From assembly GCA_044356215.1 (NCBI GenBank), contig JBIKWQ010000046.1, positions 1 through 27,785 of the forward strand: DNA of 27,785 nt, read 5' to 3'. This DNA comes from Bdellovibrionota bacterium. Its GTDB lineage: Bacteria > Bdellovibrionota_C > UBA2361 > OMII01. Position numbers and translations under genes: made by a program. Shown here in pieces: positions 194-10,950 of the stretch. A model generated the notes under the pieces. It did no database searches, was not told the DNA's origin, and saw nothing but the letters and a program-made list of their open reading frames with translations. How positions within the stretch are numbered: position 1 is the stretch's first letter; every line of letters begins with the position of its first letter.

Positions 194-1279
194 TCAACCG
201 TTCTGCGCGATATGCCTCAGGTAGTGGTCCATTATTACCAGCCCCGCCATTGCATCTACTATCGGCACAGCGCGCGGCAGAACGCAGGGATCGTGTCTGC
301 CAGCCGCTGAAAGCTTCACACGTTCGCCCGCGACAGAGACGGTATCTTGTTCCTTTGAGATAGTAGCTACAGGCTTGAAAGCTACCCTAAAAAAGATCGA
401 CTCTCCCGAGGATATTCCACCCAGAACGCCGCCCGCGTTGTTTGTACTTGGATGAATAGCGCCATCCTCGCGGAGCTCAAAAGGATCGTTGTGCTGGCTT
501 CCACGAAGATGTACAGAGTCAAAGCCATTACCGATGTCGAACCCCTTAGCGGCGTTTATACTTAGCATTGCCTTGCCAAGGTCCGCGTGCAATTTATCGA
601 AAACAGGCGCGCCTAGCCCTTTGGGCGCTCCTTTAATAACACCGCGAATGATGCCACCGATCGAATCACCCTCGCTCTGTACCTGTTTTACAAGTTCGAT
701 CATTTTTGATGCCACATCGGCGTCTGGGCAGCGCACGATGTTAGCTTCGATCATTTTTCGATTTACGTGGGAAGACCGAATTTCAGTTTTAATGCTACCG
801 ACCTGTTCGACGTAGCTTAAGATTTCTATGCCGAGTTTTTCCCTTAAATACTTTTGAGCGATCGCTCCGGCGGCGACCCTTGCTAGGGTTTCCCGAGCGG
901 AAGCCCGCCCACTTCCACGCCAATCACGTCTCCCGTATTTAGCTTGGTATGTGAAATCAGCGTGAGAGGGTCGGTAGAGATTCTTTAGCTCCTCATAGTC
1001 CTCAGATCTTACGTCCTTGTTATTAGCGAGAATTAAGATCGGGGTTCCGGTGGTGTGTCCCTCGAAAACACCGCTTAGGATCTTAATGGTATCCTCCTCT
1101 TTGCGCGGCGTGGTTAGCTCGCTTTGACCTGGTTTCCGGCGATCTAGTTCTAATTGTATGTCGGGCTCTGAAAGTGCTAGGCCAGGAGGGCATCCGTCAA
1201 CCACCACGCCTACGGCTCCACCGTGTGATTCCCCGAAAGTCGAGATCCTAAAGAGTTGGCCGAATGAATTTCCAGACAT
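194..1279 (-). CDS. aroC: Chorismate synthase
   Basis: Motifs TFGESHG, RPSHAD, GSGRASARET, FKPVATI and GRHDPC. Start taken at ATG 1279 (MSGNSFG); the ORF track extends to GTG 1285. Confidence 0.98.
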   Translation of the reverse strand: MSGNSFGQLFRISTFGESHGGAVGVVVDGCPPGLALSEPDIQLELDRRKPGQSELTTPRKEEDTIKILSGVFEGHTTGTPILILANNKDVRSEDYEELKNLYRPSHADFTYQAKYGRRDWRGSGRASARETLARVAAGAIAQKYLREKLGIEILSYVEQVGSIKTEIRSSHVNRKMIEANIVRCPDADVASKMIELVKQVQSEGDSIGGIIRGVIKGAPKGLGAPVFDKLHADLGKAMLSINAAKGFDIGNGFDSVHLRGSQHNDPFELREDGAIHPSTNNAGGVLGGISSGESIFFRVAFKPVATISKEQDTVSVAGERVKLSAAGRHDPCVLPRAVPIVDAMAGLVIMDHYLRHIAQNG

Positions 1280-1293
1280 ATTCACCGAGAAGG

Positions 1294-1986
1294 TTAATTG
1301 AGCGCCCGCATGATTGAGTCTAGTTTATCGAGGGCTAACTGGCCCGGAGCGGATCTCTGAGTCGTATCCATCGGAGCGAATGATAATTCATTTCCCCACT
1401 GAGGCCCAAACACTCGGGTAATCACTCCATGTTTGCCCATACCTAGCACAACGCAGCGTCTTCCAGCCTCACGCAGGTCGATGAGCAGCGAGAGTAATCT
1501 GAGGGCGTCTCGCTGAATGGCGCAGAATGTTGATATCTTTGTTACATGGGCGCCCCAGCCAGCTATTCGAGACGTTATTGAGCGTAGCTCCGTATCGGAA
1601 GGGGTCTGTTTATAGTTGTGGTAGGAGAGGATCGTTTTCAAGCTCAGGCGCTCGGCCTGAGATCTGGTGATCTCCTCAACCTGTGATGAGATATCTAGGT
1701 CAACTAACACATGCTTCCTGGAGAGGGTCTTTAGTATGTCGAAGCGGGTTTCAGAATCGATTTTGCACGATTCGAAATTCTGCCTGCGCGTGACCATAAT
1801 TAAACGATGAGGATAAATACCAACAAGTGAGGCGGCGAAGCCAGGGTCAATATCAGTGATGTAATCGAGCCAAACCTCAAAGAACCTGTAGCGCTCGAGG
1901 TTCTCCTCGATCGTTGTCTGCACCTCTCTTCGTGTGCGTTTGATTATCGGTAAGCAGTATCGGTTGTCACTACGGGGTGTTCGCAT
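1294..1986 (-). CDS. aroD: Type I 3-dehydroquinate dehydratase (divergent)
   Basis: ILSYHNYKQTP (catalytic His), VTKIS (Schiff-base Lys), GMGKHGVITR and SAPGQL; located in the aro cluster. Confidence 0.9.
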   Translation of the reverse strand: MRTPRSDNRYCLPIIKRTRREVQTTIEENLERYRFFEVWLDYITDIDPGFAASLVGIYPHRLIMVTRRQNFESCKIDSETRFDILKTLSRKHVLVDLDISSQVEEITRSQAERLSLKTILSYHNYKQTPSDTELRSITSRIAGWGAHVTKISTFCAIQRDALRLLSLLIDLREAGRRCVVLGMGKHGVITRVFGPQWGNELSFAPMDTTQRSAPGQLALDKLDSIMRALN

Positions 1987-2016
1987 AGAAGTTCTATAAC
2001 AACTAAAGAGCTGTGG

Positions 2017-2045
2017 ATTATAACTTAAAGGGTAGCTGTGGTCAC
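2017..2045 (-). promoter_or_regulatory. Putative sigma70 promoter for aroD-aroC
   Basis: Minus strand GTGACC (2045-2040), 17 bp spacer, TATAAT (2022-2017), about 30 nt upstream of the aroD ATG in a 146-bp gap. Confidence 0.55.
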
Positions 2046-2132
2046 TACGTTTTGAGTTCTATCAGGTGTGATAAGTTAATTTTAGGGATGCAAAGCAACA
2101 GCTCGCTTGAGAGGGCATTCGCTTGGTCTCTT

Positions 2133-2951
2133 CTAGCCAAGAGTAGAGAACATTATTTCACGCGGAGCGTCGGTCCCAGTGTGGATCTTAAACTGAGCCG
2201 CGCCCTGTTCTAAAAACATCTCTAGTCCCTCAACTACTTGGCAGCCAGACTGCCTCGCTAACCTAAGGAGTCGTGTCTCTCGTGGTGAGTATATAGTTTC
2301 GAAGATGATCTGGTGGCTTGCTAGCTGACTAGGGAGGAGGGGAGACGCCTCCAAGTCGTCAGGCATGCCCAGAGGGGTAGTGTTAATTATTACCTTGTAG
2401 CGAGTTGTATCGACCTGTGGCGAGAGCTCGCCGAAATCCGCTCCGAACTTGGTCGCCAAAGCCTTGGCTTTATCCGCAGTTCGATTCAGAACAGTTACCC
2501 TTGCCCCTAACTTAGTCAGGGCGTACACGGCGGCTTGAGCGGCCCCGCCAGCTCCTAAAACCGTGGTTGACGTCTCAGAGAGATCTATTCTGCGCTTAAG
2601 TGGCTGCAATATCCCCAACCAGTCTGTGTTGTGCCCGATAAGTTGACCGTCTACGTTTATGACGGTGTTGACGGCTCCAATATCGCTAGCTGTGGGATCG
2701 ATCTTATTCAGTAGGGGAATTATCGAAACCTTGTGTGGCATGGTTATCGCCAGTCCCTTGATTGATAGGGCTCTTATGCCCGCTATAGCTTCCTTTAAGT
2801 TCTCCGCCTTAACCCGCGATGCCACCATGGCAAAGTCAAGGTTGGTGGCTTTGTAGGCCGCGTTGTGCATCGTAGGTGATAGACTGTGAGCAACAGGGTC
2901 ACCTAATAGTAAGCACAGGGAAGTTTTAGCTGATATCGCGTAATCGCTCAT
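2133..2951 (-). CDS. aroE: Shikimate dehydrogenase
   Basis: GDPVAHSLSPTMHN, ITMPHK, GAVNT, NTDWLG, GAGGAA and NTTPLGM; 4-bp ATGA overlap with aroK. Confidence 0.96.
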   Translation of the reverse strand: MSDYAISAKTSLCLLLGDPVAHSLSPTMHNAAYKATNLDFAMVASRVKAENLKEAIAGIRALSIKGLAITMPHKVSIIPLLNKIDPTASDIGAVNTVINVDGQLIGHNTDWLGILQPLKRRIDLSETSTTVLGAGGAAQAAVYALTKLGARVTVLNRTADKAKALATKFGADFGELSPQVDTTRYKVIINTTPLGMPDDLEASPLLPSQLASHQIIFETIYSPRETRLLRLARQSGCQVVEGLEMFLEQGAAQFKIHTGTDAPREIMFSTLG

Positions 2952-3463
2952 AGTGGCTCTTTCATCTTAGTAATTATTTCGTCCGCGATGACGCCCACGC
3001 TCTTTGAATTAGTGCTAACAATTAGGTCGGCATAGGAGCGATAAACGGGGAGTCGCTTGGAAAAGAGTTCCTCAGCTTTCTGGCGATCACTCAAAAGTGG
3101 TCTATTAGATAAATCGGTAACCCGGTTGAATACCTCATCCAAAGATGTGTCGAGAAAAATAGTATATCCACCGTTTCGCGATAGGTTATTCATATTCTCA
3201 TGATTTCCGACCACTCCACCTCCAGTAGAGATAACAACCTGGCTAGAGTTCCTGAGCGATTCTGTTACTTGGGTTTCTAGTTCCCGAAACCGTGACTCGC
3301 CGAATTTATCAAATATCTCTTTGATATTCGAGCACCCCGAGAGTGATATCGCTAGGTGGTCAGCTTCGATAAACTCATAGCCGATCGTTTGCGCGAGAAT
3401 GGCGGCGACTGAGCTTTTTCCCGAGCCCATAAAGCCGATTAGGATAATTTTTGGCGGTAGCAT
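2948..3463 (-). CDS. aroK: Shikimate kinase
   Basis: Walker A GFMGSGKS, FGESRFRELE, STGGG and RPLL. Start at ATG 3463 (TTG 3466 is an alternative). Confidence 0.95.
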   Translation of the reverse strand: MLPPKIILIGFMGSGKSSVAAILAQTIGYEFIEADHLAISLSGCSNIKEIFDKFGESRFRELETQVTESLRNSSQVVISTGGGVVGNHENMNNLSRNGGYTIFLDTSLDEVFNRVTDLSNRPLLSDRQKAEELFSKRLPVYRSYADLIVSTNSKSVGVIADEIITKMKEPL

Positions 3464-3554
3464 CAATGTATTCTAGAGTACTTGTCTGTCAAAGGAAATG
3501 AGTCAAAACGACGCTAGGGGTGGCAATTATTCCACTACATGCTATACAAAAGTT

Positions 3555-4187
3555 ATGAAGTTTATCTTTTGGGATTGGAATGGAACCCTTATGAATGACG
3601 CGCCGATTCTCTGGCGGTCATTTAACGACTTGGCGACCTCTCGCGGCGGGCGGGCGACTACTTTTGAGAGCTATCGGCAGATTTACCGTCATCCAGTAAG
3701 AGAGATGTACGAGCAGGTTGGTGTTGATTTTACTCGTCACCACTTTGAGGAGATGGCGACTGAGTGGCACGGTCTATATCACAGACTGTTAGACGGAGTT
3801 GAGTTGCACCACGACGCCGTTCACGCCCTTAATACGTTTGAGAAACGTGGAAGTAGACAGGTAGTTGTCTCGGCTCTCCCCCATGATTTTCTGGAGAAGA
3901 TTGTTGATAGGTACGCGGTGCGGAATTTTTTTGAGCATATATCTGGGATTCCTGATGAGCTGGCACACAGCAAGGTGGAGACTGCTATCGCAATGGCGCA
4001 AAAGTTAAGCGCGCAGGGTAGGGATATTACCGTGATTGGGGATTCGTCGCATGACGCAGAGGTAGCAAAGGAGCTGTCCGCGAATTGTTTTCTGGTGGCA
4101 AGAGGGGCTGAAAGTAGGGAGCGCCTTGAGGCTCATGGGTTCCCGGTCCTAGATGATTTCTCGGGCTTGTTTAAGCTTCGTGCTTGA
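3555..4187 (+). CDS. HAD-superfamily hydrolase (phosphoglycolate-phosphatase-like, DWNGT subtype)
   Basis: Motif I FWDWNGTL, motif II VVSA, motif III Lys (HSK) and motif IV IGDSSHD. The start is probably ATG 3555 (MKFIFWD) rather than 3498. Confidence 0.88.
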   Translation: MKFIFWDWNGTLMNDAPILWRSFNDLATSRGGRATTFESYRQIYRHPVREMYEQVGVDFTRHHFEEMATEWHGLYHRLLDGVELHHDAVHALNTFEKRGSRQVVVSALPHDFLEKIVDRYAVRNFFEHISGIPDELAHSKVETAIAMAQKLSAQGRDITVIGDSSHDAEVAKELSANCFLVARGAESRERLEAHGFPVLDDFSGLFKLRA

Positions 4188-4584
4188 GTACTCGCCGCGC
4201 CCAGAATACGAACCTGATCACCGTGTAGAAGCTAAGTAGAACGCAGAGGGCCGCTGATACGCCCTGGATCGGTAAAGCGATTTCATTAAGTTTCTGCGGC
4301 AGCTCCGAGAGAGAATCGTTGCCGCATTGATAGCACTTAGCTAGGATCCCAGGGATTCGTTTCAACACTACCTGTGGTGTTTGGCATTGCGGCACCGGCA
4401 TTGGACAGCCTGCTGTTAATCTTTTAAGGAGTAATCCTAACGCCGCAACCCCTAATACTGAGCTCCCAAGAACCCACGCCGCCCAGCCATAAACCTTCTT
4501 AGGCGTGCGCGACGCCACCACCACAGCCAACAGGCCGGGAAGGATAGCAAATATGACCTCAATGATTTCCGGGAATAAATCCAT
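4171..4584 (-). CDS. Hypothetical membrane protein, ~3 TM helices with a 4-Cys loop
   Basis: Starts 5 bp after the aroA stop with GGAG upstream. Three hydrophobic segments; the loop contains CPMPVPQC and CYQC. Confidence 0.7.
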   Translation of the reverse strand: MDLFPEIIEVIFAILPGLLAVVVASRTPKKVYGWAAWVLGSSVLGVAALGLLLKRLTAGCPMPVPQCQTPQVVLKRIPGILAKCYQCGNDSLSELPQKLNEIALPIQGVSAALCVLLSFYTVIRFVFWARRVLKHEA

Positions 4585-4589
4585 AACTT

Positions 4590-5894
4590 CTACTCCACAG
4601 CTTCGCTTCTGATCTCGATAAGATCAAGTGTTTTCCAGAAGTCAGGGAAAGACTTATCAACAACGCCCGGCTCCTGTATTTCAATGCCATCAGTGACAGC
4701 CGCGCATATCGCGAACGACATCGCCATTCGGTGGTCCTCATAAGTAGCGATCCTCGCGGCTCCTGACGGTCTTCCACCTCGTACAATAATATAATCAGGC
4801 CCCGGAGTTGAGGAGATCCCTAACTTAGCTAGTTCGTGATGCAGAGCCGCTATTCGGTCCGTTTCCTTAACACGCAGAGTTTTAAGGCCTTTAATAATCG
4901 TATCACCTTTAGCGTAGGCGGCAACGACCGCTAAAGTCTGGGCGGTGTCCGGCATTAATTCCATATCAGCTTCAATCGCACGAAGCTCTCCTGGGCCAGA
5001 GACGGTAATGGCGTTATCTCCTTGGCTGACGGAGCACCCCATTCGCTCAAGTAGGGCGGGGAAGTGGATGTCGCCCTGCGCTGAAGAGGGATTAATGTTT
5101 TTAACTGTAATCGATCCCCCCGATACAGCCGCGATAGCCCAAAGATACGAGGCCCCAGAGGCGTCGCCCTCTACTCTGTATCGGCGAGGCTGGTAGCTTT
5201 GTCCCCCTTGTACCGAGATCTTCTTGTAGCTTTCATTTGTCGCGGTAACTCCAAATTCACACATCCCCTGTAGTGTCATATCGATATACGAAGTTGATGT
5301 GGCATCACCCTCTACAGACAGGTCCAGTCCTCCCTCGAGCAGGGGAGAGATTAAGAGTATAGCTGAAAGAAATTGGCTGCTCGTGCTTCCATCGATCTCC
5401 AGCTTCCGGCCGCTTAGCGCCCGTTCGGTTCGTATTCTTAATGGTGGACACCCTGGTAAGCCTAAATAGTCAATAATGGCTCCCGCCTGTCTCAAAGTGT
5501 CGACGAGCGCCATTATTGGGCGTTGATGCATACGCTCTGACCCTTTGAGAGTTATCTCCGCCCCTTTGATAGTAGAGCAGAGCGCCGTTAGAAATCGCAT
5601 CGTTGTCCCCGCGGGGCCAACATCGATCCCTCCGTTGTAAGTTTGAAATCGGCCTCCCGAACCATAGATCTCTATAGTGCTGTTGTCCGGCGTATCAATT
5701 CGAATCCCAAGGAGCCTCAGCGCCGCGATAAATGCTTCGCTATCTCGACTAGGAGACGCGCGAGTTAAGGTGGAGTGGCCACTCGCGCAAGCAGCCATTA
5801 CTAGCGCTCGATTGGTATAGCTTTTTGACCCGGGTACGGTGAAGGTGAAATCGATCGGTCCCTTATTTTCGCGCTTCAGAGCGATGGTGTTCAT
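4590..5894 (-). CDS. aroA: EPSP synthase (3-phosphoshikimate 1-carboxyvinyltransferase)
   Basis: PGSKSYTNRAL, AGTTMRF, SSQFLSA, LRVKETDRI, EDHRMAMSF and KSFPDF. Confidence 0.98.
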   Translation of the reverse strand: MNTIALKRENKGPIDFTFTVPGSKSYTNRALVMAACASGHSTLTRASPSRDSEAFIAALRLLGIRIDTPDNSTIEIYGSGGRFQTYNGGIDVGPAGTTMRFLTALCSTIKGAEITLKGSERMHQRPIMALVDTLRQAGAIIDYLGLPGCPPLRIRTERALSGRKLEIDGSTSSQFLSAILLISPLLEGGLDLSVEGDATSTSYIDMTLQGMCEFGVTATNESYKKISVQGGQSYQPRRYRVEGDASGASYLWAIAAVSGGSITVKNINPSSAQGDIHFPALLERMGCSVSQGDNAITVSGPGELRAIEADMELMPDTAQTLAVVAAYAKGDTIIKGLKTLRVKETDRIAALHHELAKLGISSTPGPDYIIVRGGRPSGAARIATYEDHRMAMSFAICAAVTDGIEIQEPGVVDKSFPDFWKTLDLIEIRSEAVE

Positions 5895-5923: not shown

Positions 5924-7018
5924 CTACTTTGCTTGTACCAACGAGATTGCGTCAAGCACGATCGTCGCAGGAACTTCCTGGTCAACAACGGCCGCTCCTA
6001 TGTCGGTAAGTAATGTCCAACGTGACACTCCAGAGACACTCTTCTTGTCTAGGGTCATGGCTTCGATCAGTTCGACCGGCTCCAGGTAGCATGGGAGCTT
6101 CGTCGGTAATCCGGCACGAGCGATCCCCTCGACACATAGCTTCTCTTGGACAGATGATATCAGCCCCATCCTAACGGAGATGAAGCAGGCGGCGACCATT
6201 CCGATCGCCACAGCCTCGCCATGCGTGGTTGGAGAGGTTGTGCGATGTGAGCACGATTCAATCGCGTGACCTAATGTGTGACCGAAATTAAGAGCGCGAC
6301 GTGACCCTAGCTCATACGGGTCGTTTTCGACGGCAGCGACTTTTATCTCGCATGATCGGTGAACTATTTCCGCTAACTCATCTCGTCCCCAGTCACTATA
6401 AGCCCGCGATGTGACGGTTTTAAAGTATTCCTGATCGGCGATTAGTCCGTGCTTAACGATCTCGGCGAAGCCGGAGCGTAGGTCACGGGCGGGGAGCTCA
6501 TTGAGTGTGTCGACATCAATTAAGATTCCGACAGGCTGCGCGATAGCTCCTATCAGATTCTTAACGCCTCCAAAGTTAATCCCGCTTTTTCCGCCTATCC
6601 CCGCGTCAACCTGGGCCAGTAGTGTTGATGGAACTGGAATAAAAGCGATTCCACGCATGTAAGTAGCGGCCGCGAATCCGGCGAGATCTGTGAGCGCTCC
6701 GCCGCCGACCCCAATAACTAGAGACTTGCGGTCTAGCTTGTTATCGGTGAAGAACCCCCAGAGCTCGGTGAGATTCTCGATCGATTTGCAGATCTCACCC
6801 CCGGGAATTATTAACTTTCGTGATTTTGAGCAGTCTATCCGCTCAGCGAGAGCGGAGATAATAGCTTCAGCTCCGGAGTCTCCAACTATTACAACCTTCG
6901 AGTACTTCTGAAGGTCTGCTAGCTCGGCGAGCGAGGACAGGGCGCCCCGACCGATCCAGATCGGGGAAGCCTGATCGCTCGCGGGGAGTTTCAACACTAT
7001 TGTTTGAGGATATACCAA
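5924..7018 (-). CDS. aroB: 3-dehydroquinate synthase
   Basis: GGGALTDLAGFAAATYMRGI, STLLAQVDAGIGGK, LNFGHTLGHAIE and HGEAVAIG. The TTG start abuts the upstream stop, with SD GGAGG. Confidence 0.97.
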   Translation of the reverse strand: MVYPQTIVLKLPASDQASPIWIGRGALSSLAELADLQKYSKVVIVGDSGAEAIISALAERIDCSKSRKLIIPGGEICKSIENLTELWGFFTDNKLDRKSLVIGVGGGALTDLAGFAAATYMRGIAFIPVPSTLLAQVDAGIGGKSGINFGGVKNLIGAIAQPVGILIDVDTLNELPARDLRSGFAEIVKHGLIADQEYFKTVTSRAYSDWGRDELAEIVHRSCEIKVAAVENDPYELGSRRALNFGHTLGHAIESCSHRTTSPTTHGEAVAIGMVAACFISVRMGLISSVQEKLCVEGIARAGLPTKLPCYLEPVELIEAMTLDKKSVSGVSRWTLLTDIGAAVVDQEVPATIVLDAISLVQAK

Positions 7019-9085
7019 CTAAACCTCCATCTTGCGCAGATTAGACATCAATCGCTCAAACTGTGGGAAAAGCAACGCCTGAGGCCCATCACTGAGAGCC
7101 TTTTCAGGTTCAGGATGAAATTCGACTATGATTCCATCCGCCCCAACAGCCTTGGCCGCCATCGCGAGTGGTGGCACAAGCTCACGAACTCCAGCCGCGT
7201 GTGATGGGTCGATAAACACAGGAAGATGCGTTCTTGCTTTAAGCACAGGAACGGCGCTTATATCGAGAGTTCCTCGCGTAGCAGTCTCGAATGTGCGGAT
7301 ACCGCGCTCGCAGAGAAACACCTGTTGATTTCCCCCAGCTAAGATGTATTCGACCGCTTGTAGGAGCTCCTCAATCGATGAGCTCATACCACGCTTTAAC
7401 ATTACGGGAGTTCTGGTTTGTCCAACCACTTTTAGGAGGCTAAAGTTCTGCATGTTGCGAGCACCGATCTGAATTATGTCAGCTTTTTCAGCGACTCTCT
7501 CAACGTCCTCGGTTGTCATTACCTCAGTGATTACAGGTAACCCGAAAGAGCGCCCAGCCTCAACTAACATATCGAGTCCCTCGTAGCCCAATCCTTGAAA
7601 GCTGTACGGAGAGGTGCGTGGCTTAAATACTCCACCACGTAAAATCCGGGCCCCGTTATCTCTGGCGTGCTTAGCGCAGGACATGATCTGTTCACGCGAC
7701 TCAACCGAGCAAGGCCCGGCGATTACTAAGAAGTTACCGTCACCAATCTTAACCCCACCTACATCGATAACTGTATCGGTTGGTTTGTGGTGTCTAGTGG
7801 CGAGAGTGTATCCCTTGTCCTTTGAGCTAACTTTTTTTGTTGGGGCCGTCTCTGGGGCGGTCGCTACTTCAGAGATCTTAGTCTCTGAAGTAAACTCAAC
7901 CGCTGGTGACGCCACCGGCTCGATGTCGCATGCTGGGTAGCATCCGAGAACTTTAATAAAGCGGGAGTTCTTTGTGAGTTCCGCCAGCATGGATTTAATC
8001 TCCGAGGCTGCCGTGTTCCCCGCAAAGTCGATGTAGAACATCTCCTCCCAGGAGTTTCCTTGTATTGGTCGGCTCTCGAGTTTGGTTAAGTTGATCCCAC
8101 GTTCGCGGAAGATCAGTAGGGCTTCAACGAGAGCCCCTGGCTTATTAAGAGTGCGAATAACAATCGACGTTTTCGCCGGTATTCGCGAATCTACCTTTAC
8201 CTGGTTCTTAGCTATAATCAGGTAGCGGGTGAAGTTAGACTCCTGATTCGCTATATCTCTCTTTAGTACGGTCAGCCCGAACATGTGTGCGGCTTCTTCG
8301 CTCGCCAAAGCCGCGCTGAAGCGATCTCCACTTTCCTGGAGCTTTTTCACTCCGCGAGCCGAATCATTCGATAATTCGATCGCGCAATCCGGAATAGACG
8401 ATAGGAAGGTGGCGCACTCGGAAGCGGCGAGGGCGCTGCAGAAAATCCGCCTAATATGAGAGGTTGGTATCTCATCTTTGGCTATCAGGCAGTGTTGAAC
8501 TCGAAATTTCTTCTCTCCAACGATCGATACGTTAGAATTTAACAGTAGGTCGTAGACATCGTTAATCGCTCCTGATGTGGTGTTTTCAATAGGTAGCAAT
8601 CCAAAATCGCATTCACCGGATTCAACCGCTTTGACCGCGCCTTTGAATGACTCAAACCCAATGAATGTCGGGGTCCCTGAGTTTGAATCTCCAAGCACCG
8701 TTGAGAAGTGGCTTTTGCCGGCGAGATGACAGTAAGACCCGTCGATGCCCTGAAAAGCGATCCTTAGAGAGGCGCGAGGCGGGAAGGCGTTTAGCTTGTG
8801 CTGGAGTAGGTCGTGCTGAGCTCTGTTTGATTCAGCTAGCAGTTCATGAAATACGGTCGTTACGAAGTGCGATTCGAGGTTCAGCTGGGATCCTTCGAGA
8901 ATACGCTGGCGGATCACATCGGTCTCACGTGATGAATCGCGGATATCCAGGCCTCCTGCGTCTTTAGTCTCAACAATCTGGCGAGCAAGGCCAAGTCTTG
9001 CAGCGAGTAGTTTTAATAAATTGGAATCTAGTTGATCGATCTCCCTGCGGAGATCTGTCAGTTGATTGTTTATCTCTTTGTCCAT
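7019..9085 (-). CDS. pheA: Fusion of AroQ chorismate mutase, prephenate dehydratase (with ACT domain) and type I-beta DAHP synthase
   Basis: N-terminal LRREIDQLD...LAAR...K...RDSSRE (chorismate mutase); [17 protein letters not shown] and LESRP (PDT/ACT); [35 protein letters not shown] and DPSH (DAHPS). Start taken at ATG 9085 with AGGGA upstream. Confidence 0.93.
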
Positions 9086-9143
9086 GGAAGTCCCTATTAT
9101 AGTCCGATTCAAGTCACATCCAGGTCTGACGCGGCGCGGGGAT

Positions 9144-9174
9144 AAAAAAAAGGCCCCGCTTCGCAGCAGAGCCC
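9144..9174 (-). terminator. Attenuator intrinsic terminator upstream of the pheA fusion
   Basis: Minus-strand RNA GGGCUCUGCU-GCGA-AGCGGGGCCU-UUUUUUU: 10-bp stem (3 G-U pairs), GNRA tetraloop and U-tract, ending ~60 nt before the pheA start. Confidence 0.92.
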
Positions 9175-9200
9175 AATTTCAGCGTACGTTATAAAGCGTA

Positions 9201-9275
9201 CTACCTGGCCTCTGCCTTACAAGGCGGCTCAAAAAAGTAGTAGCTAAAAAAATACGATAGCGATGCATTAGTCAT
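9201..9275 (-). CDS. Phe/Tyr-rich attenuator leader peptide, MTNASLSYFFSYYFFEPPCKAEAR (24 aa)
   Basis: Read by hand: ATG ACT AAT GCA TCG CTA TCG TAT TTT TTT AGC TAC TAC TTT TTT GAG CCG CCT TGT AAG GCA GAG GCC AGG TAG. Seven of eight consecutive codons are Phe or Tyr, followed by an antiterminator and terminator. Confidence 0.9.
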   Translation of the reverse strand: MTNASLSYFFSYYFFEPPCKAEAR

Positions 9276-9282
9276 ACTGGGG

Positions 9283-9311
9283 AGAATAAAGCGTTTGGTT
9301 GGCATAAGCAA
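9283..9311 (-). promoter_or_regulatory. Putative sigma70 promoter of the leader/pheA operon
   Basis: TTGCTT (9311-9306), 17 bp spacer, TATTCT (9288-9283), 7 nt, then the leader ATG. There is no SD in those 7 nt. Confidence 0.6.
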
Positions 9312-9535
9312 CAGAGAATCCCAGAGGCATTATGACAAGGTTTTAAAATCTTGCCCAACTTGACTGATATGGATCTATGTAGTGATTTCAGGTGGTTGCA
9401 TCTGGTTACTGGTATTGGTTCTCAGGATGGGCCATCAAATACCATTTCTTCTGGTGCCAAGAGACTTTTTTCTGCGGTATAGTCCAGTGCGCTTGCGGTA
9501 AGTGGGGCGGGTGTCAATAGCGAGAGAGTCTCTCG

Positions 9536-9552
9536 TTGGCACCTGCGTTGCA
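9536..9552 (+). promoter_or_regulatory. Sigma54 (-24/-12) promoter for the outer-membrane protein gene
   Basis: TTGGCAC-CTGCG-TTGCA matches the TGGCAC-N5-TTGCW consensus exactly; predicted TSS is near 9563. Confidence 0.75.
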
Positions 9553-9592
9553 GTCCGCCAGTGTTTAAACCTGCGGTGGGCCATGTGCGATA

Positions 9593-9805
9593 TTTTTCGT
9601 CTCAAGTTTGGGACGGGGAATGCCGTAACTCGGTAGCAGTTGGTTAGGGCTCTTAAGGATACGACAGTGAGCCTGGTGAAACGGTAAATGTGTATCGCGC
9701 ATCATACGTTTCTCTCGGAAGCTGGCGTAGAAGGAAACCGAGCCCCACGTGCGGGTAGTAGCACGAGTTAACTAAACGCGCCCTGTAGACAGAGGCGTTA
9801 TTTTT
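9593..9805 (+). ncRNA. Candidate structured 5' leader RNA, family not recognised
   Basis: Hairpins 9593-9620 (12 bp, G-U rich) and 9621-9635; long-range helix 9640-9652 with 9765-9775 enclosing GAUAC/GUAUC and GUUUCU/GGAAAC stems; hairpin 9778-9798 followed by UAUUUUU just before SD GGGAG. Confidence 0.4.
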
Positions 9806-9819
9806 GGGAGTGTATACAC

Positions 9820-10950
9820 ATGAAAATAGTAGGAAAGGTGGTGGCAGTGTCTGTCGCGTCTGTTGCCGCGGCATCTTTTAGCTACGCCGATGAGAAGGCT
9901 CACGATTTTTATTTCCAACAGAATCAACAGCGCTTCATCGTGCAACCTCAGAATGCTCGTATGTTCGGTATGGCTGGAAGCACCGCTTTAACAGCGGCGA
10001 ACAGCTTGAGTACGGTAAACAACCCAGCCGGACTCGGTATGATGAAGTACGGTGAGGTTTCAGCCGCTTACGGTTACAACGAGATCACTGGAAACACCCA
10101 GGGTGGAGCTAGTGTGAAGGATAAGCAGAGTTCTGGCCAGGTTTATGGCGCTACTCCTATTGGTCCAGTAAAGGGCGGTCTTCCTGACTACGGAAACTTC
10201 GGTCTCGGATGGTATGGAAGGAGTGGTGATTGGTCAAATGATCCACAGAACACAGACACTGGAACCTACCAGGTTTCTGGAGGTTATGGAAAAGCGATCA
10301 GCGATAACGTAGCGCTCGGTTATGGACTGACCTATCAGAATGACTCAGTCGATTTCGACGGTGGCAAGTATGATTCAAGTGAGAGCTTCCTGCACAATGT
10401 TGGTCTCCAGTATATGGAGTCCAAGGATCTAGTGCTTGGAACAACGCTCACAATTGGCCATGGAAGTCATGACCTAGAGGGAGTTTTGGCTGATCAGACA
10501 GTTGACCAGTTTTCAGTAGGTATCGCCGCTGGAGCTGAGTACATGATGGATGATACAACTCTCGGATTCGGTATCGACTACACAAACTACGATAACAGCG
10601 GAGATAACAATCTCGCTAATCGCACAGGATGGGGTGGAGATTCAACAGGTAAGGCTATGAACGTACGTCTCGGTCTTGAGCAGCGCTTAAATGAGTGGTT
10701 CGCTGTTCGCGGAGGTTATCGTTATGCCTCTAACTTTGACTGGGATTATGACCGCGCCGGTCTAAGCGATCTCAGCGGAAGCGCCAAGTACAACGCTTGG
10801 ACTCTAGGAGCTGGCCTCAACTACGCGTTTGACGAAGGTGACTTCATTCGCGCTATCATGGTTGACTACGGCGTAGAGTACCGCGACGTAGGAAACAAGG
10901 ACTGGCAGCACCTAGTATCTGTAGCCGCTCCGTTCGATCTCTGCATGTAA
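9820..10950 (+). CDS. Outer-membrane beta-barrel protein, FadL/TodX/PorV-like
   Basis: Signal peptide (..ASFSYA/DE); N-terminal NARMFGMAG...NNPAGLG motif typical of this clan; alternating amphipathic beta-strands; SD GGGAG. Confidence 0.8.
   Translation: MKIVGKVVAVSVASVAAASFSYADEKAHDFYFQQNQQRFIVQPQNARMFGMAGSTALTAANSLSTVNNPAGLGMMKYGEVSAAYGYNEITGNTQGGASVKDKQSSGQVYGATPIGPVKGGLPDYGNFGLGWYGRSGDWSNDPQNTDTGTYQVSGGYGKAISDNVALGYGLTYQNDSVDFDGGKYDSSESFLHNVGLQYMESKDLVLGTTLTIGHGSHDLEGVLADQTVDQFSVGIAAGAEYMMDDTTLGFGIDYTNYDNSGDNNLANRTGWGGDSTGKAMNVRLGLEQRLNEWFAVRGGYRYASNFDWDYDRAGLSDLSGSAKYNAWTLGAGLNYAFDEGDFIRAIMVDYGVEYRDVGNKDWQHLVSVAAPFDLCM

Follow-up and report, generated by a model that had tools for sequence, protein, structure and literature searches.

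In a Bdellovibrionota bacterium, a shortage of phenylalanine and tyrosine very probably turns on the aromatic amino-acid genes through a small leader rich in Phe and Tyr codons and two RNA hairpins that compete with each other. The element lies on the minus strand of the window (the whole stretch of DNA analysed, 27,785 nt), and we have little doubt that it is a classical ribosome-mediated transcription attenuator. A sequence-only reading had proposed an architecture of the pheL/trpL type at this site. Each part of that architecture was found, namely the ORF, the competing arms, the U-tract, conservation and, in models of the ribosome footprint, the switch.

A Phe/Tyr leader with competing hairpins

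The features of the leader region are as follows.

9306..9311 (−): −35 box TTGCTT of a predicted promoter, from a scan for promoter spacing
9283..9288 (−): −10 box TATTCT, with a 17-nt spacer from TTGCTT, ending 7 nt before the ATG
9201..9275 (−): leader ORF of 24 codons, MTNASLSYFFSYYFFEPPCKAEAR, with ATG at 9275 and TAG at 9203–9201
9231..9254 (−): control codons YFFSYYFF (4 Phe, 3 Tyr), from the sequence; when the A-site is here, the modelled probability of the antiterminator is about 1
9207..9216 (−): segment 2 (GGCAGAGGCC), which forms the antiterminator's 5′ arm; GGC.G invariant and pairing of the 6-bp core conserved
9195..9245 (−): long helix of the 1:2 protector, predicted only (−18.5 kcal/mol), in which the Ser-Tyr-Tyr codons pair with a downstream GGUAGUA
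9165..9216 (−): antiterminator 2:3, predicted fold −22.3 kcal/mol, with an inner GUACG/CGUAC hairpin at 9201–9184
9151..9174 (−): intrinsic terminator hairpin 3:4, GGGCTCTGCT-GCGA-AGCGGGGCCT, −16.8 kcal/mol; its 5′ arm is common to the antiterminator
9144..9150 (−): U-tract (T7), from the sequence; terminated transcripts are predicted to end here

The 24-codon ORF that had been described as rich in Phe and Tyr and free of Trp is indeed present at 9275–9201 on the minus strand. Phe or Tyr occupies seven of the eight codons 8–15, and the ORF contains no Trp codon. Among the 49 pairings of a small ORF with a terminator and a gene in this genome, seven Phe/Tyr codons within nine were reached by this locus alone (two entries, the same locus), and the next best had three. 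At the genome frequency of Phe/Tyr codons, 6.9%, the binomial P value of the run is 2e-7. Two longer starts, TTG at 9311 and ATG at 9305, fall inside the promoter boxes and were rejected; the invariant ATG is that at 9275.

The spacing of the predicted promoter recurs in relatives. The pattern TTG..-16/18-TAnnnT, ending 5–9 nt before the leader ATG, was found in 26 of 31 leaders (the 30 aligned leaders described below and that of G045), compared with a mean of 0.15 and a maximum of 2 in shuffled sequences and with 43 among the 1896 long ORFs in this genome. A Shine–Dalgarno-like motif occurs in just 4 of the 31. As the predicted +1 falls at or next to the AUG, the leader mRNA is probably leaderless on the evidence of these sequence patterns; transcription would start at or next to the AUG, and the peptide would be translated without a Shine–Dalgarno site.

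The RNA elements are also located where they had been read. The terminator with its U7, the antiterminator with its inner hairpin and a small GCCU-UGUA-AGGC hairpin were all confirmed at their coordinates by sequence and folding, with GCAGAGGCC at 9215–9207 (−). The terminator at 9174–9151 with its T7 is the sole terminator-like site within 8900–9800. The small hairpin (9225–9214) lies inside the 1:2 protector, which is more than this hairpin and extends as a long helix over 9245–9195. The fold of the whole 141-nt leader has modest stability (z −1.87; 9 of 200 shuffles were equally good). An Rfam search of the whole window returned no family at its gathering score, and the leader gave no match to an Rfam aptamer or T-box.

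The leader precedes genes of the common aromatic pathway

The fusion gene downstream starts with an ATG at 9085, 59 nt after the U-tract, and heads the following genes.

7019..9085 (−): chorismate mutase–prephenate dehydratase–DAHP synthase (CM-PDT-DAHPS) fusion, the first regulated gene; PRK10622 over residues 6–392 (below cut-off), TIGR01361 over 429–685 (above cut-off)
5924..7018 (−): aroB, TIGR01357 above cut-off, 0-nt gap to the fusion gene
4590..5894 (−): aroA, TIGR01356 above cut-off, after a 29-nt gap
4171..4584 (−): 137-aa ORF that matches no NCBIfam family, with a 5-nt gap to aroA; several relatives keep it after aroA
194..3466 (−): aroK, aroE, aroD and aroC, from profile matches

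These protein family matches uphold the targets named in the sequence-only reading, the fusion, aroB and aroA. In the relatives G025 and G012, aroK-aroE-aroD-aroC are contiguous with aroA. Here, a HAD gene on the opposite strand (707-nt gap) separates them from aroA and the 137-aa ORF, so they may form a separate unit. The gene for prephenate dehydrogenase lies on another contig, outside the operon, and a reading of 130 nt around the start of that gene showed no leader.

That the leader contains no Trp codon fits with the trp operon having a Trp-Trp leader and a DAHP synthase of its own. That leader, MSVQPAKAHKNKSQWGNISSHSWWA, is on contig C16 of this genome ((−), approximately 38933–38856), upstream of trpE; it is followed by a C/U-rich tract, without a hairpin-plus-U-tract terminator, and the operon ends in the second DAHP synthase.

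Several other loci of this genome were recorded. An ilv-type leader, MTGSLTANALVIISLVIVLTLVRAGCGPLL, with a strong terminator (C27:6190-6345, +) stands before a four-gene cluster that reads from the sequence as ilvB-ilvN-ilvC-ilvD. Leader peptides are thus used at ilv and trp genes as well, which speaks for attenuation at the aromatic locus. Searching this assembly (96% complete) with the proteins of relatives found neither ilvE nor leuA at E<1e-20, and leuC-D-B on contig C10 has no leader of the attenuator's kind. A second, stand-alone prephenate dehydratase is encoded at C55:6760-7593. A dispersed repeat that translates as MGKNPQCIT..FAKATA.. occurs beside a terminator-like hairpin on five contigs (C9, C32, C51, C53 and C107).

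Modelled ribosome positions switch the RNA fold

We modelled the switch by removing the bases covered by the ribosome and folding the nascent RNA, which treats a kinetic process as an equilibrium. Folding with and without the ribosome-covered segment, the check that the sequence-only reading had proposed, gave in this leader the behaviour expected of an attenuator. With the A-site on codons 7–16, the probability of the antiterminator was approximately 1; it fell to approximately 0.1 at the second Pro codon and to 0 at the stop codon. Across the 30 aligned leaders and footprints of 6–12 nt, the modelled antiterminator exceeded 0.6 on the Phe/Tyr codons in 29–30 of 30 and was below 0.2 at the stop codon in 27–30 of 30. 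In the ribosome-free equilibrium fold, this leader forms the long 1:2 helix and the antiterminator has a probability of 0.03, and such suppression (P<0.3) was seen in only 7 of the 30 equilibrium folds. In the model, segment 2 is paired at 0.40–0.97 before segment 3 is made.

In the mechanism that we propose, a ribosome stalled on codons 8–15 would cover segment 1 and leave segment 2 free, so that the antiterminator forms and polymerase reads into the CM-PDT-DAHPS gene, aroB and aroA. A ribosome that moves past Pro-Pro and reaches the stop codon would cover segment 2, the terminator would form, and a transcript of approximately 130 nt would end at 9150–9144. Stalling at Tyr codons, as well as at Phe codons, would lead to read-through.

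RNA data covered the neighbourhood of the leader. Between 14 and 20% of the sequence words of 8200–9900 were contained in 24 RNA runs. Contigs assembled from 4 of the 24 cover 9506–10100, on the side of the divergent gene, and one run also covers 8262–8537 at a depth of 2; positions 9065–9490 fall outside this coverage. In three of the four runs, the contigs end at 9506–9508, approximately 310 nt before the divergent PorV-like gene (9820). A promoter-like site at 9454–9483 lies near these ends, a weak hint that the PorV-like gene has a long 5′ leader.

The leader family is conserved across the genus

We searched 61 genomes with the fusion protein, read the upstream DNA at 30 loci and in 20 wider regions, and aligned 30 leaders of the genus, from which a covariance model, R1, was built. 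R1 matched 30 of the 34 other genomes of the genus as well as this one (31 of 35, of which 30 had also given training sequences) and, weakly, 2 of 66 other genomes. Among the four misses, G004 and G030 have no full fusion gene that could be found, and G007 and G028 have the fusion gene with no leader seen. Metagenome contigs added at least nine further leader matches. Of 12 named records with this leader, 5 are labelled Bdellovibrionota, 4 Pseudomonadota and 2 Myxococcota or Deltaproteobacteria, and 1 has no label. In a motif scan, 45 of the 253 matches listed had the antiterminator arm, and 27 of those belong to this leader family, the remainder being unrelated terminators; the 18 matches from genome contigs mostly repeat peptides already counted and were left out of the counts. 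The genomes counted are kin, and conservation and codon counts therefore overstate independence.

Four elements are invariant in all 30 aligned leaders: the ATG, GGC.G in segment 2, the sequence GGCTCTGC, and the 3′ arm together with its U-tract. Nine pairs of the terminator are kept in 30 of 30, and pairing of the antiterminator's 6-bp core is retained in 97.8% of 180 cells, with one-sided changes only. Neither the terminator nor the antiterminator core shows a compensatory change among these leaders, because segment 3, the shared and doubly constrained arm, is invariant. Thus, of the two kinds of conservation that the sequence-only reading had suggested looking for, the Phe/Tyr-rich small ORF is conserved in the genus and stem covariation is absent.

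One alternative explanation is a constitutively leaky terminator, or the end of a small RNA, with an ORF present by chance. The z score of the whole-leader fold is only −1.87, as this would predict, and plain terminators can give weak R1 scores: the matches G023:C158 and G025:C260 (33 bits), which we rejected as false positives, are the 3′ ends of two atpE-like genes, named from the sequence. This explanation is very improbable, given the invariance of both the ATG and the antiterminator arm in 30 of 30 leaders, the promoter spacing in 26 of 31, the codon enrichment and the match between control codons and operon content set out below, all of which argue for attenuation.

Control codons follow operon content

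Grouped by the genes that they precede, the leaders of the genus differ in their control codons.

Class A, pheA as the first gene after the leader (8 leaders, 78 codons): F30 Y18 L2 V1
Class B, ilvE between leader and pheA (15 leaders, 140 codons): F44 Y17 W2 L5 V8
Class C, leu genes ahead of pheA-aro (7 leaders, 68 codons): F8 Y7 L18 V14 I3; for example, MQLNRLAYLFALVVRPS and MFNASALYFFLVVGP
Class D, paralogues that head stand-alone leu operons (3 leaders, 29 codons): F0 Y1 L13 V2; for example, MNSVTTSLLLSLLTTSY

The class D paralogues score 93.6, 80.6 and 39.6 bits with R1 and so share the same RNA scaffold within the genus. G029 carries an aromatic copy as well as a leu copy, MQLSRLTYLLALVVTPS, and the latter has Leu where its relatives of the fused type have a Phe codon. 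In class C, Leu and Val together number 32, compared with 16.8 from shuffles. Phe, at 8, is close to the 6.8 expected from shuffles, which makes aromatic sensing the weakest part of the hybrid reading. Trp codons were seen within the control run in L009 (G024; TFWYF) and L025 (G011; TWYFVF), from two separate clades, and such leaders might read Phe, Tyr and Trp.

In a tree built from the fusion protein, the class C members of the genus fall into two starred clades, and G045 is a further one from outside the genus. Codon type and operon content agree in all 38 tree rows that have both traits; the other 7 of the 45 rows were left out (6 with no leader found, and G033 with its leader on another contig). 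This coupling amounts to only two independent pairs on starred branches, or three on all branches (sign test, p 0.5). An AU test on 22 of the 45 rows did not reject a single clade for the leu-fused members of the genus (p-AU 0.27).

The scaffold is not present on every leu operon: a leader of this kind is absent from 6 of the 10 stand-alone leu operons in the genus, this genome included, and one further operon is cut off. Outside the genus, Leu-run leaders precede leu operons in G052 and G098 and at 4 of 14 other loci. Several of these leaders have a terminator that resembles the one described here, but their R1 scores of 21–34.5 bits are no higher than those of the atpE terminators. In three other families of the order, the CM-PDT-DAHPS fusion has Phe/Tyr-rich leaders (L039, L041 and L042, in G039, G044 and G055; for example, MKAACLTAFFYSFYFSA). 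There, the stop codon caps a perfect hairpin that is followed by C-rich, G-poor sequence with no U-tract terminator, possibly a second, Rho-dependent type. These observations fit the idea that the Phe/Tyr switch of the genus may have been derived from a leucine attenuator.

We tentatively propose, as a view that falls just short of probable, that the Phe/Tyr attenuator arose by recoding of a leucine attenuator. In this scenario, a Leu leader and its leu-ilvE operon would have been fused in front of pheA-DAHPS-aro, the leader would have become a hybrid of Leu/Val and Tyr/Phe codons, as kept in two clades of the genus, and once the leu genes were lost it would have been recoded to Phe/Tyr codons alone, as in this genome. 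If so, the genus offers a natural series with intermediates in which one leaderless RNA switch changed specificity by codon exchange alone.

The codon exchange also bears on whether the nascent peptide, rather than tRNA charging, stalls the ribosome, either by sensing free aromatic amino acids as TnaC does or through a fixed pause at Pro-Pro. Pro lies within the final two sense codons of 21 of the 30 leaders, Pro-Pro follows the control run in this leader, and successive Pro codons are described as slow (PMC4046918). In the folds, however, the CC of the Pro codons pairs with the GG of segment 2. The peptide is unconserved outside the control codons, its content changes between Phe/Tyr and Leu/Val with the operon, and the geometry gives read-through upon upstream stalling, as suits the sensing of starvation. 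We therefore regard peptide-induced stalling as highly unlikely, and tRNA charging as the signal to which the attenuator would respond.

Tyr codons and the specificity of the switch

Whether the attenuator reads Tyr in addition to Phe is a separate matter, and on the evidence below we modestly favour dual reading. At least one Tyr codon lies within the positionally defined control window in 30 of 30 aro-linked leaders, and Phe is also present in all 30. Tyr occurs 18 times in class A, 17 times in class B and 7 times in class C, compared with 4.8, 6.5 and 2.7 from shuffles, and in the same classes the other frames contain 0, 0 and 0 (+1) and 3, 9 and 2 (+2). Both TAT and TAC are used.

A competing explanation is that only Phe is sensed, with UAC/UAU kept mainly for pairing with GUA/GUG in the 1:2 helix, or with Tyr-tRNA charging never low enough to stall the ribosome. 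All three Tyr codons of this leader are predicted to pair with GUA triplets of the protector (0.91–0.99), and those of class C are mostly predicted to be paired (mean 0.85). Classes A and B together have 74 Phe codons and 35 Tyr codons, the leu-only paralogue G029:C38 retains a Tyr codon, and the prephenate dehydrogenase gene lies elsewhere. The Corynebacterium glutamicum leader aroR, the single Phe-Tyr-Phe leader ahead of a DAHP synthase gene for which a test is described, is reported to respond to Phe and not to Tyr (PMC11802643). By contrast, 13 of 23 class A and B leaders, including one whole clade, have at least one conserved Tyr codon that is modelled as largely unpaired (P<0.35), and pairing cannot explain the Tyr codons there; the leaders of G032 and G025 are of this kind. 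Tyr is kept in frame, although the U-run would yield Phe in any frame, and CM, DAHPS, aroB and aroA serve both amino acids. Sensing of Phe alone is thus a real possibility that we rate as appreciably less than probable, and our preference stays with the dual reading. As leaders with paired and unpaired Tyr codons coexist, the genus offers a clean test of Tyr sensing by a leader peptide.

Comparison with known attenuators

The switch very probably represents a known textbook mechanism in an uncultured lineage. As the sequence-only reading had supposed, we found no described example in this lineage in the open-access literature. The surveys of Vitreschak (2004) and Lopatovskaya (2010) may already predict Phe/Tyr attenuators in delta-proteobacteria or other groups.

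A close model is pheL-pheA of E. coli and other enterobacteria (Rfam Phe_leader RF01859; PMC3082878). Common to both are a short Phe-rich leader, a competing antiterminator and terminator, a CM-PDT gene downstream and Pro near the end of the leader. Unlike pheL, this leader has Tyr codons, seems to be leaderless and precedes a fusion gene that includes DAHPS and is followed by aroB and aroA. It scores 21.3 bits (E 0.25) against Phe_leader, below the gathering score of 55, and is therefore not a member of that family. PMC3082878 places pheL-like leaders outside gamma-proteobacteria, naming Bacteroides and Desulfobacterium. A pheA attenuator of B. thetaiotaomicron is listed in PMC1173090, and putative attenuators before aromatic operons appear in PMC1173090 and PMC2659441. 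PMC1262725, PMC4833913 and PMC4046918 served as context only, and the supplements of PMC4833913 hold no gene entry for pheA, aroF, aroA or tyrA.

A Phe/Tyr leader over the common pathway is not a new concept. In C. glutamicum, aroR, a Phe-Tyr-Phe leader, precedes the DAHP synthase gene aroF (PMC4046766), and thus likewise places Phe and Tyr codons ahead of a DAHP synthase gene over the common aromatic pathway. By its description, aroR has three control codons, whereas here seven of eight are Phe or Tyr. A second precedent is a pheA locus of the Bacteroidota, L347 (Rikenellaceae), where, 150 nt before pheA, the leader MKITQNYNTSYFYFFFYFKKE, including YFYFFFYF, is accompanied by a terminator and U-tract; it is the exception among four Bacteroidota pheA loci examined, the other three having no Phe/Tyr leader. 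L347 shares with the genus the mixed Phe/Tyr codons and the terminator before pheA, but differs in terminator sequence and scores at background with R1 (19.4 bits). Dual Phe/Tyr codon content is therefore precedented, and the Tyr response in this leader is putative.

In attenuators of the thr and ilvGM type, a single leader carries codons for more than one end product of a common pathway. Class C leaders, with Leu/Val and Tyr/Phe codons, similarly combine codons for several end products in one leader, but they span the branched-chain and aromatic families, and the genus differs further in that control codons are exchanged on one scaffold. In the open-access literature, we found no report of a leader that mixes branched-chain and aromatic codons or of a single scaffold on which control codons have been exchanged naturally. 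What appears to be new here, judged from the sequences, is that the control codons follow the operon on a single scaffold, from Phe/Tyr through Leu/Val with Tyr/Phe to Leu-rich. How attenuator specificity evolves, and whether one leader can sense amino acids of two families, could both be tested on a few natural 130-nt sequences.
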